DNA from: Minisyncoccota bacterium
GTDB taxonomy: Bacteria; Patescibacteriota; Minisyncoccia; Phycocordibacterales; Phycocordibacteraceae
Assembly: GCA_041666065.1 (NCBI GenBank)
Contig: JBAYHQ010000001.1
Span: forward strand, 1-50,586
Direction: 5' to 3'
DNA: 50,586 bases
In this document: in pieces, positions 12,989-50,586 of the stretch
Numbering within the stretch: the first letter of the stretch is position 1
Layout of the letters: each line of letters starts with the position of its first letter
The notes under the pieces: model-generated
Told to the model about the DNA's origin: nothing
What the model saw: the letters and a program-made list of their open reading frames with translations, nothing else
Databases searched by the model: none
Translations under genes and position numbers: made by a program

Positions 12989-13012
12989 CTGAGTGGATGG
13001 GGATAGTCGGCG

Positions 13013-13597: not shown

Positions 13598-13616
13598 AAA
13601 TCCATTTTACCGCACT

Positions 13617-13642
13617 TACTTGGGAGTTTCGCTTCCAAGTGA
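13617..13642. repeat. hairpin repeat copy 3 (TACTTGGGAG-TTTC-GCTTCCAAGTGA)
   Basis: This third member of the ACTTGG/CCAAGT hairpin family lies just upstream of the GNAT start on the - strand. The stem includes G-U pairs. Confidence 0.6.
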
Positions 13643-13722
13643 GTGGGCTGGACATTTTATGAAATAAGGGTATTATTGCGAGCAGGTTGGTCTTCTTAAA
13701 CTAGACACGAGGAGCAAGTGCG

Positions 13723-14067: not shown

Positions 14068-14111
14068 TTTCAATTTTCTTTTAACCTGTTGTTAACAAGG
14101 AGGAATATCAG

Positions 14112-14363
14112 ATGCAAACCGCAATCGTAGTCTTGGAAGTGCTGTCGGCGACCCTTCTGGTCCTCTCTGTGGTCATGGCGACGGTGATCCTCGTGGCCAA
14201 GCAGTATCAGGGTCTGCCGCACTTCCGCGGTGACAGCGAATGGCAGGGCTGGAAAATCGCCTTCGCCAACTGGCTCGCGGAGCATAGGGCACGGAGGTAT
14301 CTGGAAGGAGTCTTGGCAGCTCTAGCCGCCACAATAGTCGCCCTTTCCTTCCTGACGCACTAG
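14112..14363 (+). CDS. small membrane protein (2 TM)
   Basis: A strong SD (AAGGAGGAATATCAGATG) is present. Two hydrophobic helices flank a basic loop. Confidence 0.6.
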   Translation: MQTAIVVLEVLSATLLVLSVVMATVILVAKQYQGLPHFRGDSEWQGWKIAFANWLAEHRARRYLEGVLAALAATIVALSFLTH

Positions 14364-14474
14364 CATTATCAAGAGCTCGCACAGTGACAGTGTGCGAGCT
14401 TTTTGACATTCATCCCTTTAGCAGTAAGGTACGGGAAGGACGGGACTGTTCCCGATAAGTAGTGGAGGTGCTCC

Positions 14475-14846
14475 ATGTCAGACGACTTCAGAGAACCCGA
14501 TGTATTCAGAAGCAGAGACTGCGGACCCGCGATCCTGTCGCTTGAGACGAGCTTGAAGGACCTTATCGTCGCTCGGAAGCAGCTCTTGCGGAGACACACC
14601 ATCCCAGAGGACCTGCTGAACCGAGGCTTTGGGAAGCGGGCCGCGGAGGTCATTGAGGAGCTGATCCAACTCCTCAACCCCGAACGCTCCGAGAACATCC
14701 GCAAGATGAACGCACAGATGATCTGGGAGGTCTACTGGAGATTGCAGGAAGGGCGAGCAGAAACGCGCTACCCAATCTTCGCGGTGCTCGCCGAGCTCAA
14801 CAGCGACCCGCTGTTCATCTCTGACTTCGCGTATACCAGTTATTGA
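14475..14846 (+). CDS. hypothetical protein
   Basis: An SD (GGAGGTG) lies 5 nt upstream of the ATG. The product is helical and I recognise no family. Confidence 0.5.
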   Translation: MSDDFREPDVFRSRDCGPAILSLETSLKDLIVARKQLLRRHTIPEDLLNRGFGKRAAEVIEELIQLLNPERSENIRKMNAQMIWEVYWRLQEGRAETRYPIFAVLAELNSDPLFISDFAYTSY

Positions 14847-14875
14847 AAGACGCTTTGACCGGCGTCTTCTTTTTG
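14847..14875 (+). terminator. intrinsic terminator closing the accessory island
   Basis: Stem AAGACGC/GCGTCTT with an 8-nt loop is followed by CTTTTT. Confidence 0.7.
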
Positions 14876-14907
14876 ACTCCTCTCACCATTTCGGGCATAG
14901 TGGAGGG

Positions 14908-15456
14908 ATGAAAGAATGGCATGGAGACGATATTGCGCCGGAGGATGTGGTGATTGAGCCAGAGGTGGGCGAAGAGGCTGGCGAGGTGCGGCCTGAAGAT
15001 AAAATCGCGAAGGTCCGCGAAGAGCTCTCTGCCTGCCGCAAAGACAAGCAGGAATACATGGACGGCTGGCAGAGAGCGAAGGCCGACTACGTGAACCTCT
15101 TGAAGCGGTTTGAAACCGAGACCAAGTCGGCGGAGTTGAAAGGCAGGGTGGGCGCTGTGGAGACACTGCTCCCAGCCTTTGACGCGCTTGAGCGCTCTAA
15201 GGAGCATGGAGATTTGCCGGAGGGCTTCACCGCTATCGCCCGCCAGCTAGAGAGCGCCTTCGCTGCGCTCGGCCTCGCAGAGACGGGCAAGGTCGGGGAG
15301 AGGTTTGACCCCGCGTATCACGAAGCCCTAGGGCAAGACGCGGTTGAGTCAGCAGGGGAAGATGATATAATCACAGCAATCCTTGAAAAGGGGTGGCGGG
15401 TGGGCGACACCGTGATACGGCCGGCGAAGGTGCGCGTGGGACACTGGGGCGCATAA
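14908..15456 (+). CDS. grpE: nucleotide exchange factor GrpE
   Basis: A coiled-coil N-terminal part (QRAKADYVNLLKRFE) and C-terminal FDPAYHEALG...GDTVIRPAKVRV are present, and the gene sits immediately upstream of dnaK. Confidence 0.9.
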   Translation: MKEWHGDDIAPEDVVIEPEVGEEAGEVRPEDKIAKVREELSACRKDKQEYMDGWQRAKADYVNLLKRFETETKSAELKGRVGAVETLLPAFDALERSKEHGDLPEGFTAIARQLESAFAALGLAETGKVGERFDPAYHEALGQDAVESAGEDDIITAILEKGWRVGDTVIRPAKVRVGHWGA

Positions 15457-15486
15457 TTGCATTTATACAAGGGCTTTTTGTAGAAT
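15457..15486 (+). promoter_or_regulatory. candidate promoter in front of dnaK
   Basis: TTGCAT (15457-15462), an 18-nt spacer and TAGAAT (15481-15486) are present. Confidence 0.35.
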
Positions 15487-15513
15487 CGTTATACGCGTAA
15501 TAATAATTTCATT

Positions 15514-17415
15514 ATGGCAAAAATTCTCGGTATAGATTTAGGGACAACGAACTCGGCGATGGCTATCGTGGAGGGCGGCGAGCCGCGCGTTCTGGAGAAC
15601 GCCGAGGGTGCACGCACCACACCTAGCATCGTGGCAGTGGGGAAGACCGGTGAGCGCATCGTGGGTACGCTCGCCAAGCGGCAGTCGGTGACCAACCCGC
15701 TCAACACGATCTTCCAGATCAAGCGCTTCATCGGCCACAGCTTTGACGAGCCGGCGGTACAGAAGGACAAGGCCTCTGTCCCGTTTGAGATGCGCAAGAC
15801 CGACAGCGGCAGTATAGAAGTGAAGATGAACGACAAGTGGTATCGCCCAGAAGAGGTTTCGGCGATGATACTCGGCAAGCTCAAGGCCGACGCAGAAACG
15901 AAGCTTGGCGAGAAGATCACCCAAGCGGTTATCACAGTCCCCGCATACTTCAACGACGACCAGCGCAGCGCGACGAAGGCCGCAGGGCAGATCGCCGGTC
16001 TAGAGGTGCTCCGCATCATCAACGAGCCGACGGCCGCGGCACTCGCCTACGGATTTAATAAGAAGAAGGACGAGAAGATAGCGGTCTTTGACTTCGGCGG
16101 CGGCACGTTTGATATCTCCGTACTTGAGGTGGGCGGCGACGTGATAGAGGTCAAGAGTACCGACGGCGACGCGCACTTGGGCGGCAAGGATATAGACCAG
16201 AAGATCATCAACTGGCTCGCCGATGAGTTTAAGAAAGAGAGCGGCATAGACGTGCGCACCGACGCGCTCGCACGCCAGCGCCTAGACGAAGCGGCGGAGA
16301 AAGCGAAGATAGAGCTTTCAAGCGCGATGGAGACAGAAATCAATATCCCGTTCCTCACCTCAGACGCTTCTGGCCCGCGCCATCTGCTTATCAAGATGAC
16401 CCGCGCGAAGCTTGAGGAGCTCTCAAGCGAGTTCATAGAGCGCGCGATCGCTATCACCAAGCGCGCGATGGAAGCCTCGCCCTTTAAGATTGCCGACATC
16501 AACGAGGTGATCCTCGTGGGTGGGCAGACGCGTATGCCGGCGCTCCAAGCGGCGGTGGAGCAGTTCTTCGGCAAGAAGCCGAACATGAGCGTGAACCCAG
16601 ATGAGGTGGTGGCTATCGGTGCGGCTATACAGGCCGGCATATTGCAGGGCGACGTGAAGGATATCCTCCTCGTAGACGTGATCCCGCTCTCGCTCTCCAT
16701 AGAGACCATGGGTGGCGTCGCGACCAAGCTCGTGGAGCGCAATACTGCCATCCCGACCAGCCGTTCGCAGACCTTCTCCACGGCGTCTGACAATCAGGCA
16801 TCGGTAGAGATACATATCACGCAGGGAGAGCGCGCGATGAGCGCCGACAACAAGTCCTTGGGCAAGTTCATGCTGGACGGTATCCCGCCAGCACCGCGCG
16901 GCATGCCGCAAGTGGAAGTCACCTTTGACGTAGACGCAAACGGCATACTGACGGTGAAGGCTAAGGAGAAAACGACCGGCAAGGAGCAGAGCATCCGCAT
17001 TGAAGGTTCAACCGGCCTCTCTAAGGAGGACATAGAAAAGATGCAGAAAGATGCTGAGGCACACGCGGCCGACGACGAGAAGCGCAAGCTGCTCGTGGAG
17101 GCACGCAACATCGCCGACCAAGCGGTCTACGCCGCTGAGAAAGCTATCAAGGACAACGGCGAGAAGGCTGGTGCCGATGTGGTGAAGGAGGTGCAGGACA
17201 AGATAGATGCGCTCAAGGTCGCTCGCGAGAGCGAAGATGTAGACACTATCAAGTCGGCGACCGACGCACTCTCCACGACGCTCTCCAAGATAGGGGAGGC
17301 GATGATGAAGGCCGCGGAGCAGGCTAAAACCGCCGAGGGCGGTTCGCCCGACGCGTCAGGGTCTGATGACGCGTCTAAGGGTCCGACTGACGCCGAGTTT
17401 AAAGAGAAGGAATAG
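15514..17415 (+). CDS. dnaK: molecular chaperone DnaK (Hsp70)
   Basis: GIDLGTTNS, DLGGGTFD and VILVGGQTRMP are Hsp70 signatures, in a full-length 633-aa product. Confidence 0.97.
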   Translation: MAKILGIDLGTTNSAMAIVEGGEPRVLENAEGARTTPSIVAVGKTGERIVGTLAKRQSVTNPLNTIFQIKRFIGHSFDEPAVQKDKASVPFEMRKTDSGSIEVKMNDKWYRPEEVSAMILGKLKADAETKLGEKITQAVITVPAYFNDDQRSATKAAGQIAGLEVLRIINEPTAAALAYGFNKKKDEKIAVFDFGGGTFDISVLEVGGDVIEVKSTDGDAHLGGKDIDQKIINWLADEFKKESGIDVRTDALARQRLDEAAEKAKIELSSAMETEINIPFLTSDASGPRHLLIKMTRAKLEELSSEFIERAIAITKRAMEASPFKIADINEVILVGGQTRMPALQAAVEQFFGKKPNMSVNPDEVVAIGAAIQAGILQGDVKDILLVDVIPLSLSIETMGGVATKLVERNTAIPTSRSQTFSTASDNQASVEIHITQGERAMSADNKSLGKFMLDGIPPAPRGMPQVEVTFDVDANGILTVKAKEKTTGKEQSIRIEGSTGLSKEDIEKMQKDAEAHAADDEKRKLLVEARNIADQAVYAAEKAIKDNGEKAGADVVKEVQDKIDALKVARESEDVDTIKSATDALSTTLSKIGEAMMKAAEQAKTAEGGSPDASGSDDASKGPTDAEFKEKE

Positions 17416-22265: not shown

Positions 22266-22351
22266 TGGTGCGCCGGGAAGGATTCGAACCTTCGTAGGCC
22301 GAAGCCGACAGGTTTACAGCCTGTTGTAATTGACCACTCTACCACCGACGC
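22266..22351 (-). tRNA. tRNA-Tyr (anticodon GTA), CCA encoded
   Basis: The reverse complement folds as a cloverleaf. The acceptor stem is GCGTCGG/CCGGCGC, the anticodon loop is CTGTAAA, there is a long variable arm (bacterial Tyr type), the T-arm is GAAGGTTCGAATCCTTC, and the 3' end is ACCA. Confidence 0.9.
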
Positions 22352-38428: not shown

Positions 38429-39370
38429 ATGGATTTCATCAAGGAATTCGGTCAGCTCGGCAAGCACGACGCCGCTATAGCGGGCGGGAAGGGTGCTTCG
38501 CTCGGCGAAATGACGCAGGCGGGGATCCCTGTGCCCCCAGGGTTCGTCATCCTCTCCGGCGCTTTTGAACATTTCCTTGAAGAGACCGGCCTACATGCCG
38601 AGATTGACGCGACCCTGCACACCGTCTCTCCAAGCGAGATGCACACCGTGGAGCATGCTTCGGAGAAGATACAGGCGCTCATACTCGGCGCGAAGATGCC
38701 GGAGGACATCGCGACTGAAATACAGAAGCTCTTCGCGAAGTTAGATGCCGAGTATGTAGCGGTACGCTCAAGCGCGACTGCCGAGGACTCCGCGAGCGCC
38801 GCGTGGGCGGGTCAACTGGACAGTTTCCTCAACACGACCGACGACACGCTCCTCACGAACGTGCAGCGTTGCTGGGCCTCGCTCTTCACCCCGCGCGCTA
38901 TCTTCTACCGATTTGAGAAAGAGCTCCATACGCAGAAGATCTCGGTCGCGGTGGTGGTGCAGAAGATGGTGCAGAGCGAGGTTTCCGGCATCGCCTTCTC
39001 GGTGCATCCGGTGACCGAGGACTACAACCAGCTCATCATTGAAGCGGGCTTCGGCCTCGGCGAGGCTATCGTCTCCGGCTCGGTCACGCCTGACAGCTAC
39101 GTGGTGGAGAAAGAGCCGCGGCGTATCATAGACAAGAACGTCACGTACCAGAGCCGCGCGCTCTGGCGCGCGGAGAACGGCGGCAACGAGTGGCGTGCTC
39201 TCTCCGAGACAGAGGGCACGAAGCCCGCACTCTCCGACGAGCAGGCGCTTGAGCTCTCCGAGATTATCCTGCGCATTGAACGCCACTACGGCTTCCCATG
39301 CGACATTGAGTGGGCGTACGAGGCGGGGACATTTTTCATCACCCAGTCTCGCCCGATCACCACGCTTGCT
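38429..39370 (+). other. domain: PPDK_N-type ATP-grasp nucleotide-binding domain (only copy in the operon)
   Basis: The domain runs from the start to FITQSRPITT, with the canonical PEP synthase / PPDK / rifampin phosphotransferase N-terminal motifs. Confidence 0.8.
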
Positions 39371-42300
39371 CCGCTCGCGGTAAAAGATGAAGCTGAGTTT
39401 ATCTCCCCAGAGCTCGCGCGTTTTCCACGACAGGATTACGAATTCGTAGGCCGGTGGAAAAGCGATTTGTTCACCGGATATTTTTGGAATTATTGGTTTA
39501 GGAAGGAGATGCTCAAGAAACTCGATTTCTCCGTACCTTTTTCGGGTTCGCTCGGATTGAAAGGCGGCAACACTTTTTATCACAAGCAGGTTGTGCAGTG
39601 GGGTTCGGATGAGATGCAGCGAATGCTTGCGGACCACTTAGAGACGCGTTCAAAGAGATTCAGAGACAGTGCCGAAAAAGATTTTGCAGAACTTCTGAAA
39701 AAGGCTGACTCCTTCGCGGAGAGTATGCCAGACCAAAACAATTTCAAGCAAGTCGTTGATGCGTATCAGGACTTCATGCTGTATTTCCTTACGGCCAATC
39801 TTATAAGCCCTCACTTTGATCCGCTGATTGCTGAGAAAGCAGTTGAGGAAGGCGTGCCCGCCGAAGACGTCGTCAGTCTGATCCCGAAATTCCCTGCACA
39901 GATTGAGACTCAGCATGCGGATGCGAGAAGGCTACTCGGTCTTCTGAAGAAGAAATCACTTGACGCATTACTCGGCGTTGATACAGAGAAACTCGTTATT
40001 GCGATTAACACAGATAAAGAGCTCAAGGGTGAATTTGAAAAACATCTGAAAGAGTTCGGCTGGCTGGAACTGTTGAACTTCGTAGGGGCGCCTCTTTCGC
40101 TGGAACGTCTTTTAGGCCAATTGAAAACGGCGTCGGGGGCAGAACAGGCGCACGAGCACGCCGCTCACGCGTACAAACTCTCCGATGAATTCAAGCACCT
40201 GCTCAAGACTGCGGCAGACATAGGTTTCGTACGTCAAGCGGCGGCTGAGACTTCCTCTATATTCCACTACAAGCTCATCTCGTATCTTGAGAAAACTGCG
40301 CAGGCGCTTGGTCTCACGTATCGGGAAATGCTTAACCTCGTCCCTCCTGAAATTGTCCAAGGATTGAGCGGTGCGAAATCGCACGAGGAACTGAAACGAA
40401 CTGCTGAGAAGAGGGCGGGATATAACTGGCTCGTGTACGGAGATATCGCGACAGAGAGCCTCATTGTCATAGACGAGAAAGAGGATGTGGAGAAGATGTG
40501 CTCGCTCATGATCCCCACTGCAGATGAAGGCGCTGATACGCTCGGCGGACAGATCGGGAACAAGGGGAAGGTGCAGGGGAGGGTAAGTGTGATCATGGCG
40601 TCCGACGATTTTCACAAGTTTGTAGAAGGGAATGTGCTCGTCACGACCATGACGACGCCCGACTTCGTCATCCTGATGCAGAAGTCGGTCGCGATTGTGA
40701 CCGACATCGGCGGCATGCTCTCCCACGCCTCCATCGTCTCGCGCGAGCTAGGGAAGCCCTGTGTCATCGGTACGAAGTTCGCCACGCAAGTCCTCCGCGA
40801 CGGTGACCTTGTGGAGGTAGACGCTGACAGCGGGGTGGTGCGCATATTGGAGCGCACAGGGTCGAGCCCTGCTGTGCTCGTCGACCCAGATAAGGAATTG
40901 CTCATTATGAGAGACCGGCCGTCAATGTTGTCTCCTGTGTACTGGAATCAAGTCCTTCAGATTAGCGATGAAGTAAAAGAGATATACGGTGATGTTCTAA
41001 GTACCGAATACACGACTCATTCAAACGGGAGAATGAGCTCGGTAATGATAAAGAATGAATGGAATAGGGTTGGGGATTTCATAGCAAACAAAATAGTAGA
41101 TAGTGAAGAATACTTTAAGAAAATTGTGCGGAAGACGGAAGAATCTAAAAAGCACATTCAGTCTTTTTTAAAAGAAATAGCTGAAGAGAATTTAGAGAAT
41201 CTTAACTTTGACGAGCTGACTAAAAAAGTCGAGACGATTAGGGACCTGTTTTTTGAATACGATGCTGCCAGTGTGTTCGCTTGGTTTGTCGCTGGAGATC
41301 AAATTAAACAGAAGATTGATTCAATTCTCAAGTTATCAAAAGAAGATTTGGATATACTCTCTCTTCCCAAAGAAAGAACCTTTGCCTCTCAAATGGAGCA
41401 AGAGGTTTTAGAGGTGGCTGTTGCTACTTCAAAAGATATTGAAAAAGAAGCTGAGAAGTTAGAAAAACGATTCTATTGGATTCTTTTTGGTTATGACGGT
41501 CCAACGGTGTGTGATAAAAATTATTTCATTGAGCAGATACAGATGCATCGAAAAGAAATGTCTGAGACAAGAAAAAGACTTGCTGAAATCAAGAGTACTG
41601 AAAATGATATTAGAGACAAAAGAGAAATAATTATAAAAAGGGAGAGCTTCACAGAAGCCGACGAACGTCTCATAGATATTTTGCGCCGCATTACTACTTG
41701 GACCGACGAAAGAAAGATGTTGGATTTCCAACTCTTCTACCATCACAATAGAGTCCTGACTTCTATAGGCTCAATGTTTGGAGCCTCTATTACGCAGATG
41801 AAGTATCTTTTCACCCACGAATTAAGAGGCCTTAAGGAAAAACACAAAGAGCTACTGATTGAAGCCGATAAGCGTATACAGAATGATTTTATTGTCATAA
41901 GTCATGGGGACACCTTAAGGATAGCCTCCGATGAGGAGAAGGCTCTCTTCAAGAAAGTGATAGATGCCCAACTCAAACATACCGAGGTAAAAGGCAACGT
42001 GGCTAGTGCCGGCCCCCAGAAGACATATCGTGCTGTAGCGAGAGTATTGCTGTCTCCAGCCGAGTGCTCAAAGGTCAAGGGTGGAGAAATAATGGTGGCA
42101 ACAATGACTACGCCGGACTATGTTCCTGCCATGAGAAATGCTCTTGGTTTCATAACTGATGAGGGTGGAGTCACGTGTCATGCTGCTATTGTTGGGCGCG
42201 AAATGAATAAACCATGCATTATAGGGACCAAGGTAGCCACCAAAATCCTAAAGGATGGCGATTTCGTGGAGATGGACGTTAATAACGGTGTGGTGCGTAT

Positions 42301-43414
42301 ATTGGAGCGGACAGGGGATGCGGCGATAAAGAAAAGTCTGGTGTGGAATCCTCAAGCGGCGAATAGCACTGTCATCGAGCAGATAGAAAGCACTGATTGG
42401 CGTCAGGACTGGTCAGACGTATACAGCACCATTGAGGCGTCCTTAGACATAGATTCGTATTTCGGCGTATTTGAGAAAGTCTGTGGGACAAGCTTCTCCA
42501 GCATAATGCTTATCTTTGACGGGGACACGACGGTCTGCTGGAGCCCCACTAACGAGTCTGAGGAGCTTGGGACGCATCTGGTACAGAAAATGCTTGATCC
42601 TGTATTCCTCAAGCAGTGGGTCGCCGCATACAAGTCTCACGCTGACACTCTTACTGAGTTCGTTAAGTTGCCGTTTGACGAGTTTCTCAAACGTCTCCCT
42701 GAATATAAAGAGAGGTACCCTTACCTCGCCCCGCACGTCATCGGTACGAAAATAGCTTTTAATCTATTGCCGATGGGGCACGAGGATGTCGCTGCGGAGC
42801 TTGAGGCGGCGCGTCGGTACACCGAGATGTTCTACAAGAATTCCACGCACGTCATGAACGAGTTGTGCGCGCACATCGCGAAAGAGAAGGGATACAGTTT
42901 GAAATCGATACGTGCCTTGTCGGTAGATGAGCTCTGTGAGTACGGTCAGACTGGCGTGCTTCCTGAGGAGAGTGTGTTGGAGGCACGGTCTGCTATAAAG
43001 GGCATCTATCTAGAGAAGGGGCGGCAGCATACGCTATCTGCCGACGATGTCTCCGACATACAGAAATCATGGCAGACGAGCGTGGAAGGCGACACTTTGA
43101 AAGGTGCGAGTGCTTATCCGGGCATCGTAAGGGGCGTATGCCGTGTGGTCATAGACTATCGTACTGCATCAGTAGATGACGGGGAGGTGCTTGTAGCGAC
43201 CATGACCGACCCGCGATTTGTTCCGTTCATGAAGAAGGCGGCGGCCATAGTGACTGATGGCGGTGGTATGCTCTCGCACGCGGCCATCGTCGCGCGCGAA
43301 CTCAAAGTGCCGTGCGTCGTGGGGACGAAGCTCGCGACACAAGTCCTCCATGACGGCGACCTCGTGGAGGTAGACGCTGACAGCGGGGTGGTGCGCATTC
43401 TGGAAAAAAAATAA
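38429..43414 (+). CDS. 1661-aa tri-modular PpsA/RPH-like phosphotransferase: PPDK_N ATP-grasp domain + three (helical domain + phosphohistidine swivel) modules, no PEP/pyruvate TIM barrel
   Basis: The N-terminus has GGKGASLGEM, VAVRSSATAEDSASAAWAGQLDSFLN and FITQSRPIT (PPDK_N). Three swivel domains carry TTMTTPDF..IVTDIGGMLSHASIVSRELGKPCV, ATMTTPDY..ITDEGGVTCHAAIVGREMNKPCI and ATMTDPRF..IVTDGGGMLSHAAIVARELKVPCV. Confidence 0.85.
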   Translation: MDFIKEFGQLGKHDAAIAGGKGASLGEMTQAGIPVPPGFVILSGAFEHFLEETGLHAEIDATLHTVSPSEMHTVEHASEKIQALILGAKMPEDIATEIQKLFAKLDAEYVAVRSSATAEDSASAAWAGQLDSFLNTTDDTLLTNVQRCWASLFTPRAIFYRFEKELHTQKISVAVVVQKMVQSEVSGIAFSVHPVTEDYNQLIIEAGFGLGEAIVSGSVTPDSYVVEKEPRRIIDKNVTYQSRALWRAENGGNEWRALSETEGTKPALSDEQALELSEIILRIERHYGFPCDIEWAYEAGTFFITQSRPITTLAPLAVKDEAEFISPELARFPRQDYEFVGRWKSDLFTGYFWNYWFRKEMLKKLDFSVPFSGSLGLKGGNTFYHKQVVQWGSDEMQRMLADHLETRSKRFRDSAEKDFAELLKKADSFAESMPDQNNFKQVVDAYQDFMLYFLTANLISPHFDPLIAEKAVEEGVPAEDVVSLIPKFPAQIETQHADARRLLGLLKKKSLDALLGVDTEKLVIAINTDKELKGEFEKHLKEFGWLELLNFVGAPLSLERLLGQLKTASGAEQAHEHAAHAYKLSDEFKHLLKTAADIGFVRQAAAETSSIFHYKLISYLEKTAQALGLTYREMLNLVPPEIVQGLSGAKSHEELKRTAEKRAGYNWLVYGDIATESLIVIDEKEDVEKMCSLMIPTADEGADTLGGQIGNKGKVQGRVSVIMASDDFHKFVEGNVLVTTMTTPDFVILMQKSVAIVTDIGGMLSHASIVSRELGKPCVIGTKFATQVLRDGDLVEVDADSGVVRILERTGSSPAVLVDPDKELLIMRDRPSMLSPVYWNQVLQISDEVKEIYGDVLSTEYTTHSNGRMSSVMIKNEWNRVGDFIANKIVDSEEYFKKIVRKTEESKKHIQSFLKEIAEENLENLNFDELTKKVETIRDLFFEYDAASVFAWFVAGDQIKQKIDSILKLSKEDLDILSLPKERTFASQMEQEVLEVAVATSKDIEKEAEKLEKRFYWILFGYDGPTVCDKNYFIEQIQMHRKEMSETRKRLAEIKSTENDIRDKREIIIKRESFTEADERLIDILRRITTWTDERKMLDFQLFYHHNRVLTSIGSMFGASITQMKYLFTHELRGLKEKHKELLIEADKRIQNDFIVISHGDTLRIASDEEKALFKKVIDAQLKHTEVKGNVASAGPQKTYRAVARVLLSPAECSKVKGGEIMVATMTTPDYVPAMRNALGFITDEGGVTCHAAIVGREMNKPCIIGTKVATKILKDGDFVEMDVNNGVVRILERTGDAAIKKSLVWNPQAANSTVIEQIESTDWRQDWSDVYSTIEASLDIDSYFGVFEKVCGTSFSSIMLIFDGDTTVCWSPTNESEELGTHLVQKMLDPVFLKQWVAAYKSHADTLTEFVKLPFDEFLKRLPEYKERYPYLAPHVIGTKIAFNLLPMGHEDVAAELEAARRYTEMFYKNSTHVMNELCAHIAKEKGYSLKSIRALSVDELCEYGQTGVLPEESVLEARSAIKGIYLEKGRQHTLSADDVSDIQKSWQTSVEGDTLKGASAYPGIVRGVCRVVIDYRTASVDDGEVLVATMTDPRFVPFMKKAAAIVTDGGGMLSHAAIVARELKVPCVVGTKLATQVLHDGDLVEVDADSGVVRILEKK
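40541..40861 (+). other. domain: swivel (PEP-utilizers mobile) domain 1, His codon 40724-40726
   Basis: LGGQIGNKGKVQGRVSVI...GGMLSHASIV...DGDLVEVDADSGVVRILERTG. Confidence 0.85.
41987..42316 (+). other. domain: swivel domain 2, His codon 42179-42181
   Basis: VKGNVASAGPQKTYRAVARVL...GGVTCHAAIV...DGDFVEMDVNNGVVRILERTG, encoded in AT-rich DNA. Confidence 0.85.
43097..43411 (+). other. domain: swivel domain 3, His codon 43277-43279
   Basis: LKGASAYPGIVRGVCRVV...GGMLSHAAIV...DGDLVEVDADSGVVRILEKK. Confidence 0.85.
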
Positions 43415-44701
43415 ATGGAAAAACTCTCTTGGCTTTCTTCAAAAGAAGGTGCTGATGTGCGTACTATCATCACTCACTTCTGGGACACGCTCTCCACTAA
43501 AGCGTATCCAGTAACTAAGGGTACGATGCGCGTCCCTATCTCTCTTGAGCCTTTCACTCTCTCGCGCGAAGAATATGAGAACCTTAATAAAAATCTGCTT
43601 CTGGTTATTTCGGCGGCACGGAAACTTGCCGAACACTATTTTACCGACCAAGACTTGCAGACGATATTTAGCCTCAATGCAGCCGAAGTTGGTTTGATTG
43701 AAGCCTCAAAGGACGAACCGTTTGTGGGAATCGTGAGAGCCGACCTCTTCTATGGCGCTCAACCGAAGTTGGTGGAACTTAACACCGATTTCCCCGATGG
43801 GTTCTTCATGCATGATGTGACCGCGCAGACTATTCAAGATCTCCTGCCGGCACACTACGAGACTAACTCAAACGCCGCGCTATTTCAGAGACTGCTTGAA
43901 TCAGCAGGAGTTAGTAAGCAAGACCATATTTTCATTGGCTATGATAAAGGCAGGAAGTTCATAGACGAATTCGCCCTAACGCAACGTACGCTAGAAGGGC
44001 AGGGGTGGAAGCGTGTAAGTTACGGCGCTATTGAAGATTTGGAATATCGAGATGGTGTCTTTTATTGGAACGATGAACCGGTACAAGTCATCCGGCGTGG
44101 CGTGGAGACTTCAAAAATGCGCGCGAATACAGAACTCTTGGCGAATATCACGCGGGCACAGCGAGATTCTGGACTTAAGGTAATCAACAACTTCAAGATG
44201 CGCCTGCTTGGGCACAAGTCCCTTCTGGCGGCACTCTGGGACACGCGATTTGAAAAATATATGAGCGACGAGGAACTCGGAGCGGTTAAGTCTCTCGTCC
44301 CCGAAACATTGAAGTTGGAAACGGCAGGTTTGGAGAAAATATCCATAGAAAAAGATGGGTGGGTACTAAAGCCCTCCGACCTTACTGAGGGCGAAGGTGT
44401 CGTCATAGGCTCTGCATGCAGCGCCACCGAGTGGTCGGCGAGTATTGAAGAAGCACTCAAGAATCCGCGAGCGTGGCTTCTGCAACGCAAGGCAGATATT
44501 CCTAAAGACACGTTCTCCCTGTTCAACGCTGAGACCGGCGAGACCCACTCGTCGGAGATGAGCTACGATCTAGATCCGCATATCGTCCTGTTTAGAGACC
44601 ACGCCGAAATGGGCAATATGCTCGTGCGATTCTCCCCGTCGGAGATACTGAACGTCATGAAAGGCGGCGGTTTAACCTACGCTTTCGTAGGAGTAGAATA
44701 A
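43415..44701 (+). CDS. ATP-grasp ligase of the glutathionylspermidine-synthase-like / circularly permuted type-2 ATP-grasp group
   Basis: VGIVRADLFYGAQPKLVELNTDFPDG resembles the R-x-D...K-L-x-E-x-N-x-D-x-P signature of GspS-like amidoligases. GWVLKPSDLTEGEGVVIG is an ATP-grasp strand-loop motif. The ATG directly follows the TAA of the giant ORF, in the same frame. Confidence 0.6.
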   Translation: MEKLSWLSSKEGADVRTIITHFWDTLSTKAYPVTKGTMRVPISLEPFTLSREEYENLNKNLLLVISAARKLAEHYFTDQDLQTIFSLNAAEVGLIEASKDEPFVGIVRADLFYGAQPKLVELNTDFPDGFFMHDVTAQTIQDLLPAHYETNSNAALFQRLLESAGVSKQDHIFIGYDKGRKFIDEFALTQRTLEGQGWKRVSYGAIEDLEYRDGVFYWNDEPVQVIRRGVETSKMRANTELLANITRAQRDSGLKVINNFKMRLLGHKSLLAALWDTRFEKYMSDEELGAVKSLVPETLKLETAGLEKISIEKDGWVLKPSDLTEGEGVVIGSACSATEWSASIEEALKNPRAWLLQRKADIPKDTFSLFNAETGETHSSEMSYDLDPHIVLFRDHAEMGNMLVRFSPSEILNVMKGGGLTYAFVGVE

Positions 44702-44707
44702 ACATCT

Positions 44708-45835
44708 ATGGCTGACAAAGAGATTCTTTCTGTTGATTGGCAGCTCTGGATACAGCGGAAAGGGCTAGATATCTTCAGCGTCAGCCTATTCCATATAGAA
44801 GAAGAGGGGCTTCTGCGCGCTGTCATCGGTGGCGGCACTTCAAAGCAGCTCTGTGTCTGCGAGGGCGATGATTATCTGTTTATTCGCTCAACAAGCGACT
44901 TTGCGCAGATGTATAACGACATCGCGGCGTTCATCCGTAAGCAGCCCCTCGGATATTTTGAGAAAGTATTTGAGAAAGCTCGCACGATGCCTGAGGTGAC
45001 CCGCGATCTCATCAAGCGAGTTTCTGGCTATTCCGACACTGAAGTGGTAGAGAACTTCCAAAACATCACTGACGATATCATGGCCGTCATTCTCTATAAC
45101 ACCTCTATTCCGTATTTCTTGCTGTCAACGCTGGAGACGCACGCTGATATACCGCCGGCTCACTATGACCTTCTCATGCGAGAGTCTGAGAAATTGCGCG
45201 CGACATCGCTCTTCCATGACCTCATGACCTCTGTGTACGGGAGGATATTTGATGTGTTATCGCGCCGTTTCGGAGTGGAGAGGGCCCATGCCTCATTCCT
45301 CTCGGTAGAAGAAATGGCCGACATGGTAAACGGGAAAGCCGCCGCGCCAAGCGCGAATGAGCTCGTCGCACGAGAGAAGTGTGTCGTGTGGATGGACAAA
45401 ACGCAGAACAGGACGCTCTTCTCCTACGACGAAGGGCTTCGCGAAGAAATAAAAGAACGGGTGTGGAATCAGCTTAAGCCAAGAGTGGACGCTAGTGGAG
45501 CATCGCTGCTGAAAGGGAATACCGCCTTCGGCGGCAAGGTGTCGGGGGCTGTGAAGATCGTCACCTCTGCCGCCACCATGGCCAAGATGGCCAGAGGAGA
45601 CATCCTCGTCGCCCACACTACGAACCCAAGCTTGATGCAGGCTATCTCGCTCGCAGGTGCAATAGTGACCGATGAGGGCGGTATCGGCTGTCATGCCGCT
45701 ATCGTCGCCCGCGAGCTGAAAGTACCGTGCATCATCGGGACACGAATCGCGACTCAAGTCCTCCACGACGGCGATATGGTTGAGGTAGATGCCAACAACG
45801 GAGTGGTTAGGATAATAAAGGGAATTGTTACATAA
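44708..45835 (+). CDS. stand-alone module: about 267-aa helical domain + C-terminal phosphohistidine swivel domain
   Basis: The C-terminus reads LLKGNTAFGGKVSGAVKIV...AHTTNPSLM...IVTDEGGIGCHAAIVARELKVPCIIGT...DGDMVEVDANNGVVRII. The swivel spans about 45509-45826 and the His codon is 45692-45694. Confidence 0.8.
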   Translation: MADKEILSVDWQLWIQRKGLDIFSVSLFHIEEEGLLRAVIGGGTSKQLCVCEGDDYLFIRSTSDFAQMYNDIAAFIRKQPLGYFEKVFEKARTMPEVTRDLIKRVSGYSDTEVVENFQNITDDIMAVILYNTSIPYFLLSTLETHADIPPAHYDLLMRESEKLRATSLFHDLMTSVYGRIFDVLSRRFGVERAHASFLSVEEMADMVNGKAAAPSANELVAREKCVVWMDKTQNRTLFSYDEGLREEIKERVWNQLKPRVDASGASLLKGNTAFGGKVSGAVKIVTSAATMAKMARGDILVAHTTNPSLMQAISLAGAIVTDEGGIGCHAAIVARELKVPCIIGTRIATQVLHDGDMVEVDANNGVVRIIKGIVT

Positions 45836-46662
45836 TGAGGAGCATGGGAAAATTTGAGAAATTGGCATCTGCCGGATACTTAGATAAAACTCGCGAACAA
45901 AGCGCCCGTAGGAGCATAAGTTCTGAGGAGTACCAAGATTTGGAAAAGAAGATGTCTTCGCGTCTTACCGACCAACCATGGGAGAAAGAGGGGAGTATGA
46001 GATTCTCTATTAAAGGGGAGGGCGAAGACGCTCTCCCCACCTCATTTTCTATAGAATACGACTCAGAGAGCACCCCTGAGTTAGAAAAATATCGCCACCA
46101 AATACGCGGATGGACGCCGGATGACGACATGGACGACATGGTGACCATAAATATGGGTACGTTTAGGAGGATTAAGGACTTAAGGATTGAGCATGCCGGA
46201 AATAAATTTGATATGCGAGCGGCAGTTAGGAATCTGGACGTTTATACCTACATCGGGAACGAACCTCGCAAGCAAGTCATAATCAAAGGCCAACATGGTG
46301 TGTATGGTCTTCGTTCTCGCCACGCAGAGATTATCTTCACTACATTTGACCCGACCTCTATCTTCGGACTTATGGTATTACTCCATGAAATAGGGCATGA
46401 AGTAAAAGAGTCAGCCTACACAATAAAAGAGAGCGGCTTTAAGAAGCAAAGCGGCGCAAAGATTGAAAATGGTGAGGCTACGACTGTCGCCGAAAAAGTA
46501 AGCCTGATTGAAAACGAAAGATCAGCTGATGCTTTCGCATTACACACACTGTACCGCCTGATGGGCAAAAATGTTGATATGACCAAGATAAATAAAATAT
46601 TCCATTCTGGGCAGTCTGGAGCTCAGGGGAGACTAAAGTGGAGTCCTGATGCAAAGCTGTGA
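45835..46662 (+). CDS. hypothetical HExxH protein (putative zinc-dependent hydrolase/peptidase)
   Basis: LLHEIGHEV (HEIGH at 46384-46398) is followed by ENERSADAF, which could supply a Glu ligand. GC is lower (hand count 43% for 46141-46200). The start overlaps the previous stop (TAATG). Confidence 0.5.
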   Translation: MRSMGKFEKLASAGYLDKTREQSARRSISSEEYQDLEKKMSSRLTDQPWEKEGSMRFSIKGEGEDALPTSFSIEYDSESTPELEKYRHQIRGWTPDDDMDDMVTINMGTFRRIKDLRIEHAGNKFDMRAAVRNLDVYTYIGNEPRKQVIIKGQHGVYGLRSRHAEIIFTTFDPTSIFGLMVLLHEIGHEVKESAYTIKESGFKKQSGAKIENGEATTVAEKVSLIENERSADAFALHTLYRLMGKNVDMTKINKIFHSGQSGAQGRLKWSPDAKL

Positions 46663-46684: not shown

Positions 46685-47704
46685 ATGGAGAAAATCGTAT
46701 TGCAGAAGAATTACTCGCGAGACTTCACGCTCATATTGGAACAGTTGTGGGTGGGCGCTTTCAAGCGGAACATCAAAGCCGAGTACGGTTTTGAAACGCC
46801 CTATCCACCATACGTGGTGCTACATGTGACAGACGAAAATCTGGAGATATGGGAGCACGAGAAGGCTATTGGCTCTTTTCAAGATTGGCTACTGGAGAAG
46901 AATACTGTGAGCACCGATTTCCTGCGGCAGATAGTACGCGAGTACGAAGACTTGATGGCGGTAATAGAGGGCCACTGGAAGAGGGGCGGCACGAAAGATC
47001 TTGAGACTATCGCGGAGTATCTAGCAGCCTCGGAAAAAGCGGTAACACTCTTCTGTATCTGGTACTACTCGTGTATAGACGAACGGACGCCGGAGACGGC
47101 GCAAGCGATCGCTCGTCCGCTCCGCGAGAAGGACGAGTTCTTCGCGAAGAACGACAAGCACATCAAGGACTGTGTCGTGGCTCTCGGTGGGAAGCGGGAA
47201 CTGGCAAATCTTATCCTGCTCTCAGAATTCCCGAACATTCCGAGTGAGGAGACGCTCCGAGCCCGCACGAGTGGCGTCGTGGTCGTAGACGCCGACGAGG
47301 TATTCTTCTCTCCGCTTCCACAGTTCGCTGCGGAGCACCCAGAATACGTATTTGAAGATTTACAGCCGATCACCGAGACTCCCAAAGAGCTTTCAGGAAG
47401 TATCGCCTACAAGGGCTCGGTCACGGGGAGGGTACGGGTTGTGAAGAACGTGCGCGCGATGGATGGCGTCCACGATGGCGACATCATCGTGTCGCCCATG
47501 ACCACACCAGATTTCATAGCGGCGATGCGGAGAGCGGCAGCATTTGTGACCGATGAAGGCGGCATTATGTGCCACGCTGCCATCGTCGCGCGGGAGATGA
47601 AGAAGCCCTGCATCACGGGTACAAAGTTCGCCACGCAAGTCCTCCGCGACGGCGATCTTGTGGAGGTGGATGCCGATAGGGGAGTCGTACGGATATTGAA
47701 ATAG
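46685..47704 (+). CDS. stand-alone module: about 235-aa helical domain + C-terminal swivel domain
   Basis: The C-terminus reads LSGSIAYKGSVTGRVRVV...SPMTTPDFI...FVTDEGGIMCHAAIVAREMKKPCITGT...DGDLVEVDADRGVVRIL. The His codon is 47573-47575. Confidence 0.8.
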   Translation: MEKIVLQKNYSRDFTLILEQLWVGAFKRNIKAEYGFETPYPPYVVLHVTDENLEIWEHEKAIGSFQDWLLEKNTVSTDFLRQIVREYEDLMAVIEGHWKRGGTKDLETIAEYLAASEKAVTLFCIWYYSCIDERTPETAQAIARPLREKDEFFAKNDKHIKDCVVALGGKRELANLILLSEFPNIPSEETLRARTSGVVVVDADEVFFSPLPQFAAEHPEYVFEDLQPITETPKELSGSIAYKGSVTGRVRVVKNVRAMDGVHDGDIIVSPMTTPDFIAAMRRAAAFVTDEGGIMCHAAIVAREMKKPCITGTKFATQVLRDGDLVEVDADRGVVRILK

Positions 47705-47706: not shown

Positions 47707-48750
47707 ATGGACAAGGCCCCACGAAGTCTTGATTTGTTCGGGTACAGAGACTTCACGCTGGCGACGGCCCAGATAGGGACTGAGGCCGAGTCGCTCGGAC
47801 TGTATCTTGGTGACTTCAAACTCGCGCAGCCGTATTTCGTAGTGGAGAGGAGAGAAGGGAAGTCAGGGTACTTCATTGATACTGCGCAAGTGAATCGGCA
47901 GAAAGAAATTATTCTGGAGAAAATCGAAGCTGATAAAGGCTTTGTAGACACGCTCATAGACACCTCGGCGGGATATTACGACGAGCTTGAGTCGGCGCTC
48001 ACGGAAGGACGGCCGCTCTCGCGAGCTGAGTTCTCAGGTCTCGTAGAGCCCTTCATTAACGCATGGAGCTGGATGGCAGGGTGGTGGTGGGCGACAGAGG
48101 CGATGGAGGAGAGGAATCTACACCCTGAACTGGTGGAGAAAATAATGGTCTTCAGAAGAAAGACCGAAAAAATCATCCCGCAAATTGACCACCTCACCCG
48201 CGTGACCGCAGAGACTCTTTACCCAGAAATCACGGAGTACGCAGATGCACTTACAGTAGAAGAAATAATAAACGGGAAGATACCTTCGGAGAGCGAATTG
48301 CGGGAAAGGATGCACCACCATCTCGTCGTGAACAACAAGGTCTTTACCGGCGAGGAGATAGACAAGGTTCTGAGCGACATGGGAATAATCCTGACCGTGC
48401 CAGAAGTGACTCATTTCAAAGCGGCGGACGGTACGCTCACAGGACAGACAGCTTACAAGGGGAAGTACACCGGCAAGGTATCTATCGTGTTTACCAGAGA
48501 AGATGCGGGCGATTTCAAAGCAGGCGACGTGCTCGTAGCGAGCTCCACGACGCCCGACTTCATACACGCTATCAAGAAGGCGGGCGCTATGGTCGCCGAC
48601 GAAGGTGGTATCATCTCGCACGCAGCCATCACAAGCCGCGAACTGAAAATCCCGTGCATCATCGGCACAAAAATAGCGACTCAAGTCCTCCGTAATGGAG
48701 ATGTTGTTGAAGTGGACGCAGACAATGGTATCGTTAGGATACTTTCATAA
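47707..48750 (+). CDS. stand-alone module: about 243-aa helical domain + C-terminal swivel domain
   Basis: The C-terminus reads LTGQTAYKGKYTGKVSIV...ASSTTPDFI...MVADEGGIISHAAITSRELKIPCIIGT...NGDVVEVDADNGIVRIL. The His codon is 48619-48621. Confidence 0.8.
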   Translation: MDKAPRSLDLFGYRDFTLATAQIGTEAESLGLYLGDFKLAQPYFVVERREGKSGYFIDTAQVNRQKEIILEKIEADKGFVDTLIDTSAGYYDELESALTEGRPLSRAEFSGLVEPFINAWSWMAGWWWATEAMEERNLHPELVEKIMVFRRKTEKIIPQIDHLTRVTAETLYPEITEYADALTVEEIINGKIPSESELRERMHHHLVVNNKVFTGEEIDKVLSDMGIILTVPEVTHFKAADGTLTGQTAYKGKYTGKVSIVFTREDAGDFKAGDVLVASSTTPDFIHAIKKAGAMVADEGGIISHAAITSRELKIPCIIGTKIATQVLRNGDVVEVDADNGIVRILS

Positions 48751-48751
48751 C

Positions 48752-49108
48752 ATGTACACCATACGGATTATTGAAGGGGAAATAACCAAGCCAGAGCTTC
48801 GCCGTATGGCCGAAGAGATATTTGGCGACATGGTGAAAGGTACGGCTGATATTACAAAAGATACGATGGCGCTCGGAGGCGAGATGCACATAGACAGTAA
48901 CCAACTACTGCTCGACACGGGTTCGGAGCAACAGAATGTCTGGGGTTTTAACATTTATCCAGATCAGCCAGTAGAGAGCTGGATAGAATACAATTCCTTG
49001 GTTAACATAAAACCGGTTTTGGGGAATAGGTCACCAGATATTCTAGATGCCAGTGTCAGAGAAAAAATAAAAGACATCGTCCTAAAACACGTCTCGTTAC
49101 ATGAATAA
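48752..49108 (+). CDS. DUF5674-like small protein
   Basis: MYTIRIIEGEITKPELRRMAEEIFGDMVKGTADITKDTMALGGEMHIDSNQLLLDTGSEQQNVWGFNIYP...NIKPVLGNRS matches my recollection of the DUF5674 pattern (FGDMVKAVVDI...ELHAD...LWGINLYP). The family name needs HMM confirmation. Confidence 0.55.
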   Translation: MYTIRIIEGEITKPELRRMAEEIFGDMVKGTADITKDTMALGGEMHIDSNQLLLDTGSEQQNVWGFNIYPDQPVESWIEYNSLVNIKPVLGNRSPDILDASVREKIKDIVLKHVSLHE

Positions 49109-49430
49109 TATACACACCGAGACAATCAACACTCGATGGAGTCAGTTCACACTGGCGCAACAGATGGCTAGCGTGGCAAGCGAGTTCGCCAGACTCTCTT
49201 CTTGGTGCGCGAAAGGGAACGAGACCCTTGCAAAGAGTTCGGCCGCGAGGACTATAGACCTCGTAGACGCAATGCTGCGTGATAGCCGATGGAAGGGCCG
49301 AGAACTTGAGTTCAGGAATCTCAAGGTGGCGGTTGAGTCTATGGTCGCGCCGGAACATTTTGGAACAGTTGGTGGGGAGGCGGTACAGCGTAGCCTCGCG
49401 CCTTTTTTCGCCCTCGCAGCCCTATCGTAA
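49101..49430 (+). CDS. small helical hypothetical protein
   Basis: The 109-aa ORF overlaps the previous gene by 8 nt and the next by 1 nt (TAATG). I recognise no family. Confidence 0.5.
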   Translation: MNNIHTETINTRWSQFTLAQQMASVASEFARLSSWCAKGNETLAKSSAARTIDLVDAMLRDSRWKGRELEFRNLKVAVESMVAPEHFGTVGGEAVQRSLAPFFALAALS

Positions 49431-50586
49431 TGGCATATAAACTCATAGAGAAGTTCAAGAAGATCATCGGGAGCGACCCTGTCGTGGTTATCCACGCCTC
49501 TATCTCGCCCCTCTTTATGAATGTCGCATGGAGTCGCGGCGAACACCCGATACCCTCGCTCTCCTTAGTGAGAGGCCGCGACAATTACATCTCTTTCAAC
49601 GAGAGGCGTTACTTCGCGCTCGCGACGGATATGTTTCGTCGGTATTACGAAGGGAAGGTAAGTATTGAAGAACTTGAAGACAGGTACCGCGAATACGAGA
49701 GGCATGCCCAAGAGATGTACGACGAAGTGACCCGCACAGACCTCGGAGCACTATCAGACGATGAGCTGAAGGCGTATATGGACAGGATTGACGGTCTCTA
49801 CACCGAGCTTCTAGACACCATTTATATAGAGACCATAGACTACGACAAGATACTTTCCGTCATCGGTGCTGAACACCAACAAGAACTGGATAAGGTATGG
49901 GAGAAGGCGACACAGCCGACCTTCGTGTCTTTTGAGGGACGGTACCTGCGCAACATGACCGATCTTGTGTCCTCAGGTCAGGAGGACACTGTCCGAGAGG
50001 CACGGTTTATGTTTACCGACTATTCATGGACAAAAAGTAGTGATGAGATCATAGCCGCTCTTGCTGCAGTACGAGACAGCTTAGACGAAAAGAGACGAGA
50101 AGTAGAACGGCTCTATGCTGAAGCCAGGGCCAAGGAAGAGGTGTTCTCGGCGTGGGAGGACACGCTCAGCCCTCGTGCGCGGCGTATCGCAGCCTATACG
50201 CAGATGGTGATGTGGATGCGCGATGCGAGGAAAGACCCTATCGCGCAGATGCTCGCGGTGCTCGTAGAAATCGCGACTATCATGACCAAGCGCGCCGACA
50301 TAGAGCTCCGCCACGCTCCATTTATCCAATTCCACGAGTGCGTGAAGGGCGTGGAGCACCTCAAGCAGATGAAAGCGCATATTGAGGCGCGAGAGGAGGG
50401 GAGCGTCTATCTCGCGCACCCTGACAAGACGTACGAGATAGAGCATCGCGATTTTGAAGAAGCCTTGGCCGAGTTCAACGAATGGACGATGCCGCAGGCA
50501 CACGAGTCGTCCGAACTCCGAGGTCAGATCGCCTGTCGTGGTCAAGTGCGCGGCATCGTACGGGTAGTATCTGACCCCCATGACGA
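49430..50586 (+). CDS. stand-alone module (partial, runs off window): at least 362-aa helical domain + start of a swivel domain
   Basis: It is not in the ORF track because it is open-ended. Hand translation gives MAYKLIEKFKKIIGSDPVVVIHASISPLF...VMWMRDARKDPIAQM...ELRGQIACRGQVRGIVRVVSDPHD with no stop. The last 24 aa match the N-terminal strand of the other swivel domains. Confidence 0.75.
   Translation, partial: MAYKLIEKFKKIIGSDPVVVIHASISPLFMNVAWSRGEHPIPSLSLVRGRDNYISFNERRYFALATDMFRRYYEGKVSIEELEDRYREYERHAQEMYDEVTRTDLGALSDDELKAYMDRIDGLYTELLDTIYIETIDYDKILSVIGAEHQQELDKVWEKATQPTFVSFEGRYLRNMTDLVSSGQEDTVREARFMFTDYSWTKSSDEIIAALAAVRDSLDEKRREVERLYAEARAKEEVFSAWEDTLSPRARRIAAYTQMVMWMRDARKDPIAQMLAVLVEIATIMTKRADIELRHAPFIQFHECVKGVEHLKQMKAHIEAREEGSVYLAHPDKTYEIEHRDFEEALAEFNEWTMPQAHESSELRGQIACRGQVRGIVRVVSDPHD

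Follow-up and report, generated by a model that had tools for sequence, protein, structure and literature searches.

The window, the whole 50,586-nucleotide (nt) stretch of DNA analysed here, covers positions 1 to 50,586 of the forward strand of contig JBAYHQ010000001.1 from a Minisyncoccota bacterium (assembly GCA_041666065.1). Its large open reading frame (ORF) at 38429–43414 runs for 4986 nt from an ATG to a single stop, with no internal stops. The product of 1661 amino acids (aa), identical to NCBI MFA6502673.1, carries one ATP-grasp domain at its N-terminus and three consecutive modules, each composed of a putative acceptor domain, here termed X, and a swivel domain bearing a candidate phosphate-carrying His. 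Four further modules are encoded downstream, placing seven His carriers against one PPDK_N domain in an operon of ~12.4 kb. The architecture is solidly established, and from it we infer that a single ATP site serves many His carriers, every one of which has an acceptor site to itself, with charging in cis or in trans, a reading to which we assign a probability of roughly 0.7. The large ORF is laid out as follows.

38429–43414, plus strand: whole ORF, 1661 aa, ATP-grasp plus three modules of X domain and His swivel (ORF, Pfam)
38429–39388, plus strand: ATP-grasp nucleotide-binding domain, aa 1–320 (Pfam PPDK_N)
39389–40546, plus strand: X1, long-class putative acceptor domain, aa 321–706, 386 aa (profile-profile match to the X2 family)
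40547–40858, plus strand: swivel 1 (S1), aa 707–810, His766 at 40724–40726 (Pfam, motif)
40859–42004, plus strand: X2, long-class putative acceptor domain, aa 811–1192, 382 aa (AlphaFold2 model, Foldseek)
42005–42313, plus strand: swivel 2 (S2), aa 1193–1295, His1251 at 42179–42181 (Pfam, motif)
42314–43102, plus strand: X3, short-class putative acceptor domain, aa 1296–1558, 263 aa (AlphaFold2 model, Foldseek)
43103–43411, plus strand: swivel 3 (S3), aa 1559–1661, His1617 at 43277–43279 (Pfam, motif)

The domain content is directly observed. Pfam PF01326 (PPDK_N) matches once per chain, at aa 17–320 with an E-value of 2.7e-96, and tblastn across the window reveals no second ATP-grasp copy. 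The best PDB sequence matches for this domain are the archaeal phosphoenolpyruvate (PEP) synthases 8A8E and 9DAE. Aligned to residues 4–319 of the rifampin phosphotransferase RPH-Lm, it retains the residues of the first partial reaction of RPH, with K21, R113, S132 and E294 corresponding to K22, R117, T136 and E297, the third position being Thr in RPH. Pfam PF00391 (PEP-utilizers) matches three separate stretches with a summed E-value of 2.8e-75, and each swivel carries a complete GGxxxHA(A/S)I carrier motif: GGMLSH766ASI, GGVTCH1251AAI and GGMLSH1617AAI. An earlier note, made from the sequence alone, had described an uninterrupted ORF with one ATP-grasp domain, swivels at His766, His1251 and His1617, and intervening helical domains of about 390, 375 and 260 aa. 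The Pfam and motif searches agree with this description, as do the measured lengths of 386, 382 and 263 aa, and the X domains are mostly helical with small β elements in the AlphaFold models.

The operon continues on the same strand, its genes separated by gaps of 0–22 nt or joined by small overlaps. Among them are four modules that the earlier note did not cover, all without an ATP-grasp domain.

44708–45835, plus strand: module 4, stand-alone, 375 aa, short-class X plus swivel, His329
46685–47704, plus strand: module 5, stand-alone, 339 aa, short-class X plus swivel, His297
47707–48750, plus strand: module 6, stand-alone, 347 aa, short-class X plus swivel, His305
49430–50586, plus strand: module 7, 469 aa, long-class X plus swivel, cut by the window end and complete on a JGI contig

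A carrier His in the context T/SxxGGxxxH is present in all six swivels that are complete in the window and in module 7.

The earlier note had also raised the concern that the long ORF might be a collapsed or chimeric assembly of paralogs, and the evidence dispels this concern. A separate assembly, JGI contig Ga0376277_0000251 (325,206 bp), overlaps the window by 22,158 bp with five mismatches and encodes the same intact 1661-aa ORF. The fused architecture is also present in all 120 of the closest database proteins, which constitute the set of relatives used below (P-numbers). The supposition that paralogous genes were collapsed or joined in assembly or annotation, or that stops were lost to sequencing error, can point to the GC content at third codon positions (GC3) of module 2, which is 0.42–0.48 compared with 0.65–0.81 in the adjoining conserved domains S1 and S3, and to a 35-nt exact repeat common to S1 and S3. 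That repeat is the longest between any two swivels, followed by one of 29 nt between S1 and S5 and by at most 16 nt in the other pairs. S2, however, shares at most 11 nt with any other swivel, as do the junctions around module 2, and the fusion point falls where stand-alone homologues have their N-terminus. The same fused architecture moreover recurs in hundreds of independent proteins. Because the ORF is intact in a second assembly and its architecture is repeated in relatives, the 1661-aa protein is real, and the likelihood of an artefact is negligible. The composition of module 2 (40859–42313) has the appearance of a cassette from a low-GC donor inserted exactly between S1 and X3: its GC is 0.39 in X2 and 0.49 in S2, with GC3 of 0.42 and 0.48, respectively, whereas GC3 reaches 0.68–0.81 in the ATP-grasp domain, S1 and the flanking housekeeping genes (0.68–0.76 in the housekeeping genes alone).

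For the nature of the X domains, 373 inter-swivel X domains were taken from the relatives. Their lengths define two classes, a short one of ~220–300 aa and a long one of ~340–420 aa; 312 of the 373 fall in one BLAST single-linkage cluster, and together they make up 111 to 206 subfamilies, depending on the threshold. Searched alone, the X domains return only noise in Pfam and PDB sequence searches and no NCBIfam match, and BLAST detects no mutual similarity among X1–X3 and X4–X6. Profile-profile comparison with hhalign nevertheless connects them, with probabilities of 98.7% for X1/X2, 97.2% for X2/X3, 98.3% for X3/X4, 97.9% for X3/X6 and 99.8% for X5/X6. By this chain of profile links, the six analysed X domains (X1–X3 and those of modules 4–6) are one divergent superfamily.

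Structural modelling relates this superfamily to RPH. For module 2 (X2+S2, aa 811–1295), the AlphaFold2 model, built from a 21-sequence alignment, has a mean predicted local distance difference test score (pLDDT) of 89.1 and a predicted template modelling score (pTM) of 0.86, and its Foldseek search against the PDB returns six RPH-Lm structures with an E-value of 4.6e-15, a query TM-score (TMq) of 0.54 and ~580 aligned columns. No other PDB structure is matched outside the swivel; the remaining matches cover the swivel alone at a TMq of ~0.2. Module 3 (X3+S3, short class) is modelled with a pLDDT of 90.6 and a pTM of 0.85, and its top six Foldseek matches are again RPH-Lm, with an E-value of 8e-14 over ~280 columns and partial coverage of the rifamycin (RIF)-binding domain. 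In the structure-based alignment the X domains share 17–24% identity with the RIF-binding domain of RPH-Lm, and at the sequence level the module 2 profile aligns to RPH-Lm residues 617–866, while the N-terminal two thirds of the RIF-binding domain find no sequence match among the X domains. As judged from these models and profiles, the X domains are not linkers but homologues, much diverged, of the RPH substrate-binding domain, with X2 and X3 connected to RPH through Foldseek on models and X1 and X4–X6 through the profile-profile chain only.

The matched region includes a catalytic block of RPH. The WTDERK stretch of the X2 subfamily (aa 1091–1096) aligns over Y665-R666-E667-Y-P-K670 of RPH, where mutagenesis has identified R666 and E667 as essential for the second phosphotransfer and where K670, in the same hydrogen-bond network, is structurally implicated (PMC4844700). 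The R666-E667-K670 block is conserved even among distant RPH clades with other specificities (PMC4844700). The six X subfamilies each retain an invariant or nearly invariant basic residue located 155–159 aa before the carrier His, mostly with an acidic residue 3–5 positions later; for module 7 this spacing was examined in its own sequence only, not in a subfamily alignment. The conserved residues are as follows.

X1: R or K (aa 602) in 31 of 35 sequences, E (aa 607) in 34 of 35
X2: D in 13 of 13, R in 12 of 13, K in 13 of 13
X3: R (R1462) in 26 of 26, E (E1466) in 26 of 26
X4: R in 5 of 5
X5: R in 32 of 32, D in 30 of 32
X6: R in 17 of 17

Comparison across proteins reveals that the evolutionary unit is an X domain together with the swivel that follows it, which is also the order found in stand-alone relatives. 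Among 149 orthologous X pairs from different proteins, identity averages 74% between the following swivels and 56% between the preceding ones, and the following swivel is the more similar in 138 of the 149 pairs (Wilcoxon p = 9e-24). Within the window, the closest swivel belongs to the module with the closest X domain for four of the six modules. These sequence comparisons indicate co-evolution between each X domain and the swivel following it. Concerted evolution of the swivels toward their shared ATP-grasp domain was considered and rejected: no more than 5 of the 373 modules have their nearest swivel in the same protein, and the window swivels are 42–62% identical to one another compared with 68–81% to orthologous swivels elsewhere. 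Against this general lack of homogenisation stands the likeness of S1 (40547–40858) and S3 (43103–43411), whose DNA is 77% identical over 230 nt, including the 35-nt exact run, and whose last 18 residues, DGDLVEVDADSGVVRILE, are identical; it could have arisen by local duplication or mark a gene-conversion tract. S1 and S2 also end alike, in GVVRILERTG.

A different proposal holds that module 1 alone is catalytic and that modules 2 and 3 are regulatory or vestigial, acting as sensors or decoys. Precedents of a kind are provided by the C-terminal domain of Bacillus-type pyruvate kinase, which is PEP-utiliser-like and whose structures 2e28 and 3t05 are among the matches, and by VadK, a regulator derived from pyruvate phosphate dikinase (PPDK). 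The proposal is nonetheless improbable: the His and the full motif are kept in all swivels, invariant polar residues occupy the putative equivalent of the RPH catalytic block in all X subfamilies analysed, and the modules are maintained over wide divergence. Moreover, the same X subfamily occurs twice in one protein less often than chance would predict (3 observed against 9.1 ± 2.8 expected). One ATP site feeding several functional carrier-acceptor pairs is the arrangement that we favour.

The relatives extend this organisation well beyond the window. All 120 carry one full-length ATP-grasp domain, N-terminal except in P0104, where it is internal, and two of them carry an additional short partial match; the number of swivels is two in 32 proteins, three in 55, four in 23 and five in 10. 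A swivel profile searched against 1.84 billion representatives at 50% identity yields a best 150 whose members have from two to six swivels each, so that clusters at 50% identity with two or more swivels number at least 150, while a search of genome contigs with the whole 1661-aa protein returned one weak locus only. The proteins constitute a large, apparently undescribed family of ultra-small bacteria and archaea with two to six units each, confined mainly, as far as source names show, to bacteria of the candidate phyla radiation (CPR) and DPANN archaea. Their loci form a directly observed continuum, from a fully split ATP-grasp gene with separate modules to five or six modules fused in one chain, as the following examples illustrate.

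L002, Kaiserbacteria: two fused plus four separate modules
L008, JGI Ga0645779_00060, 901-kb contig: a pair of multi-swivel genes, both with a stand-alone module behind them
L009, 126-kb contig from an ENA metagenome: 2021-aa protein plus modules of 814, 474 and 433 aa
L010, Woesearchaeota: 1756-aa protein plus a 513-aa module
L011/L012, fully split: 316-aa gene with PPDK_N only, followed by modules of 478 aa (X2-type) and 482 aa
L013, archaeal contig, 7296–16797: five separate modules

Individual modules move along this continuum. X subfamilies occupy different module positions in different proteins, some as separate genes, and module order is not conserved. For example, module 5, which stands alone here, shares 58% identity in its X domain with the third, fused module of P0114, and X2, which lies within the fused chain here, has 27 further relatives of which ~20 are full-length stand-alone X-plus-swivel proteins of 466–494 aa.

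These features discriminate between the two alternatives left by the earlier note, namely carriers sharing one ATP site with an acceptor domain each, or phosphate handed down the chain from one His to the next. In the latter scheme, ATP would charge swivel 1 only and the phosphate would then travel from His to His to a final acceptor, an idea invited by the three carriers per chain, by the multi-step His relays generally known from the phosphotransferase system (PTS), and by the capacity of HpeH alone to move phosphate between two substrates via its own His (PMC12167813). It would, however, depend on ordered swivel-to-swivel contacts and fits poorly, because module order is shuffled among relatives and the same modules are encoded separately, as individual operon genes or beside a stand-alone ATP-grasp. 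In addition, every swivel has its own co-evolving acceptor-like domain with a conserved basic motif, and our literature search found no precedent for swivel-to-swivel transfer. A relay thus finds no support and is highly improbable, whereas a shared ATP site with separate acceptors is favoured by the RPH-like X domains and because X and swivel are paired (138 of 149) and stand-alone modules occur beside a stand-alone ATP-grasp.

In the favoured reading, the single N-terminal ATP-grasp domain would bind ATP and phosphorylate the swivel His of each carrier in turn, so that all His residues would be charged by this one domain. A charged swivel would then dock on the X domain immediately preceding it and pass its phosphate to the substrate bound there, each X probably binding a distinct small molecule. 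By analogy, the products would be AMP, inorganic phosphate and the phospho-substrate, with a presumed stoichiometry to match. Seven carriers, three fused and four encoded by separate genes, would thereby depend on one ATP site while each remains dedicated to its own acceptor. The fused modules could be served in cis or in trans, and the separate ones would necessarily be served in trans, in the manner of HpeHI, CreHI and PpsAB. The swivel-to-next-X linkers are short, with low confidence limited to the first ~4–7 residues of the module models.

Several observations weigh against this reading. Swivels that are tethered on both sides, or that lie 1300 residues away, must reach the single ATP site. 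Phosphotransfer and ligand binding by X are predicted from sequence and models, and each carrier His would be expected to face a conserved Arg. The equivalence of the conserved short-class Arg to the catalytic Arg of RPH is suggestive, its correspondence to R666 being dependent on the alignment, with hhalign preferring another register. The neighbouring genes vary between loci and provide no consistent pathway clue.

Finally, locus L013 has five modules but shows no ATP-grasp in its 18.7 kb of sequence, which leaves room there for a phosphoryl donor other than an ATP-grasp. Generalised, this would make the modules independent enzymes that draw on another donor, such as PEP or a phospho-metabolite, and that are fused for co-expression only; the ability of HpeH alone to pass phosphate from a phospho-product to another substrate (PMC12167813) is in keeping with such a scheme. 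It is harder to reconcile with the presence of exactly one full-length ATP-grasp domain in 120 of the 120 closest relatives, with the split operon, which keeps a PPDK_N gene directly upstream of its modules, and with the failure to find the PEP-binding domain PF02896 in the 1661-aa protein. We regard the scheme as unlikely, and charging of all modules by the one ATP-grasp domain remains our preferred interpretation.

If this interpretation is correct, a single ATP site feeding several different carrier-acceptor pairs would represent a new organisation of swivel chemistry, and it raises the questions of how carriers compete for the ATP site, whether they act in cis or in trans, and how tethered swivels travel. 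Well over 100 cassette sequence types are present among the 373 sampled. A wide variety of small ligands is suggested by the diversity of the X domains, by the exchange of modules between lineages and by the foreign composition of module 2. As to their identity, we would guess at diverse hydroxyl-bearing metabolites or xenobiotics, and likewise at a role in metabolite scavenging or trapping by genome-reduced symbionts or in detoxification as for RPH, both of which fit equally well. On a wider scale, the family may serve Patescibacteria and DPANN archaea as a hub-and-spoke platform, in which one ATP-grasp charger is combined with an expandable set of horizontally exchanged cassettes, each consisting of an acceptor and its private carrier and freely fused or split. 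Such a platform would permit a cell with a tiny genome to phosphorylate many scavenged metabolites or toxic compounds using one energy-coupling domain and would be, in its logic, an ATP-driven counterpart of the PTS; we put this forward tentatively, giving it somewhat less than an even chance. Because the family is large, with at least 150 clusters, and the operon spans ~12.4 kb, the system is likely an important, currently unannotated part of the physiology of CPR and DPANN symbionts.

Interspersed with modules 4–7 are the remaining genes of the operon.

43415–44701, plus strand: 428-aa protein, weakly ATP-grasp-ligase-like (GSP_synth / CP_ATPgrasp_2, below cut-off)
45835–46662, plus strand: 275-aa protein with a HEIGHE motif
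48695–49430, plus strand: a DUF5674 gene (137/118 aa) and an ORF of 109 aa, both small

The 428-aa gene abuts the large ORF, whose stop occupies 43412–43414 and is followed directly by the ATG at 43415; its product has a sub-threshold likeness to ligases of the glutathionylspermidine-synthase type and the circularly permuted ATP-grasp type. The HEIGHE motif, encoded between modules 4 and 5, is zinc-metalloprotease-like, and the 275-aa protein bearing it has no Pfam, NCBIfam or PADLOC match. The 428-aa, HEIGHE, DUF5674 and 109-aa proteins have no NCBIfam, PDB or PADLOC match, and their genes are not found in loci L002–L006, so they were rejected as conserved partners. A role in anti-phage defence was rejected as well, since PADLOC matches no protein of the operon.

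At related loci, His_Phos_1 genes adjoin L002 (three copies), L004, L008 and L011, and none is present in the window operon. The His_Phos_1 superfamily includes the phospho-histidine phosphatase SixA, and such neighbours might either reset the carriers or use the products as substrates. More generally, His_Phos_1, HAD, NUDIX, HD, PNPOx and PfkB genes, the first four of them phosphatase-type, recur near some of the related loci and are likewise missing from the window operon. In L008 (1–16331), the genes for a 1619-aa protein with three swivels and a 2300-aa protein with four lie ~5 kb apart, separated by an rve-type integrase, an HD protein and a His_Phos_1 gene, and are followed downstream by AlaRS, S13, S11, S4, RpoA and L17, of which AlaRS, S4 and RpoA are also encoded near the window start. 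The L013 modules are interleaved with Fic, methyltransferase and unknown genes on a contig that carries Topo VI and RIO1. Elsewhere in the window, positions 10000–14000 have a GC of 0.47–0.49, compared with a window average of 0.55, and encode a ClpP-like SDH-type serine protease, a minus-strand GNAT acetyltransferase and ORFs without a family match; this segment may be another acquired island. A single tRNA-Tyr(GTA) gene lies at 22266–22351 on the minus strand amid genes that are almost entirely on the plus strand.

Among known systems, the 1661-aa protein belongs to the superfamily of RPH and two-component small-molecule dikinases. The earlier note's view that known enzymes have a single swivel in each chain is borne out by the characterised RPH, PEP synthase (PEPS), PPDK, enzyme I (EI) and HpeH; to our knowledge, each of the swivel-domain enzymes characterised so far (PEPS, PPDK, enzyme I, RPH and HpeHI) has one ATP or PEP site, one carrier and one acceptor site. 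The multi-swivel architecture is therefore unusual in the literature and not in nature, being abundant in metagenomic protein sets. Full-text literature searches found no description of multi-swivel proteins, absence there being no proof, and as far as these searches show, repetition of a carrier-acceptor unit behind one ATP site is undescribed. RPH-Lm (PDB 5FBS, 5FBT and 5HV1; PMC4844700) displays the same order of ATP-grasp, substrate-binding domain and C-terminal His swivel, and it is the sole solved structure with a substrate-binding domain that matches X2 and X3. It differs in being a monomer with one module per chain, compared with three per chain and seven per operon here, and in its RIF-binding domain, of which the short-class X domains (~240–270 aa) cover only part. 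An identity as a rifamycin phosphotransferase proper was rejected because the NCBIfam RPH model NF041857 scores 465 against a cut-off of 999; NF000283 likewise scores 340 against 1700.

A parallel to the split modules is provided by the two-component dikinases HpeHI and CreHI and the phenylphosphate synthase PpsAB, in which the ATP-grasp and the RPH-like substrate domain with its swivel are separate polypeptides, as in modules 4–7 and L011. In these systems the His of a protein made up of substrate domain and swivel can be charged by an ATP-grasp protein encoded apart from it, with HpeI (ATP-grasp) and HpeH (RPH-like substrate domain plus swivel) acting as separate proteins (PMC12167813). The 1661-aa protein itself corresponds to the fused state. 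The HpeHI-type systems comprise one ATP-grasp protein per acceptor protein of ~70 kDa, act on phenolic substrates and occur in free-living Actinomycetota and Pseudomonadota, whereas here up to seven smaller, highly divergent acceptor modules accompany one ATP-grasp in Patescibacteria and DPANN.

PpsA and PPDK are clearly homologous to the 1661-aa protein in their ATP-grasp and swivel domains, but their acceptor domain follows the swivel, whereas here it precedes it. The PEP/pyruvate-binding TIM-barrel PF02896 gives no match at E ≤ 0.01, and each swivel is followed by an X domain or by the stop; without a PF02896 domain, an identity as PEP synthase was rejected. JGI nevertheless names the protein PEP synthase/PPDK, and the NCBIfam PEP-synthase model NF005057 scores 641.5 against a cut-off of 598, which is passed only by summing four stretches, because one ATP-grasp and three swivels are added together; TIGR01418 fails, with 605.5 against 739.75. 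Such misnaming, which database records of the family share, can yield false gluconeogenesis calls in metabolic reconstructions of CPR and DPANN genomes. PTS enzyme I was rejected as well, since the swivel region alone matches EI models and structures, and the HPr-binding helical subdomain and C-terminal PEP-binding domain of that enzyme are lacking. As an analogy only, the PTS has the same hub-and-spoke logic, one entry point leading through phospho-His to many acceptors, and its enzyme I shares the swivel fold. Its donor is PEP, whereas ATP would be the donor here, and in place of HPr, EIIA and EIIB, which have no counterpart in this operon, each substrate site is provided with its own copy of the carrier.

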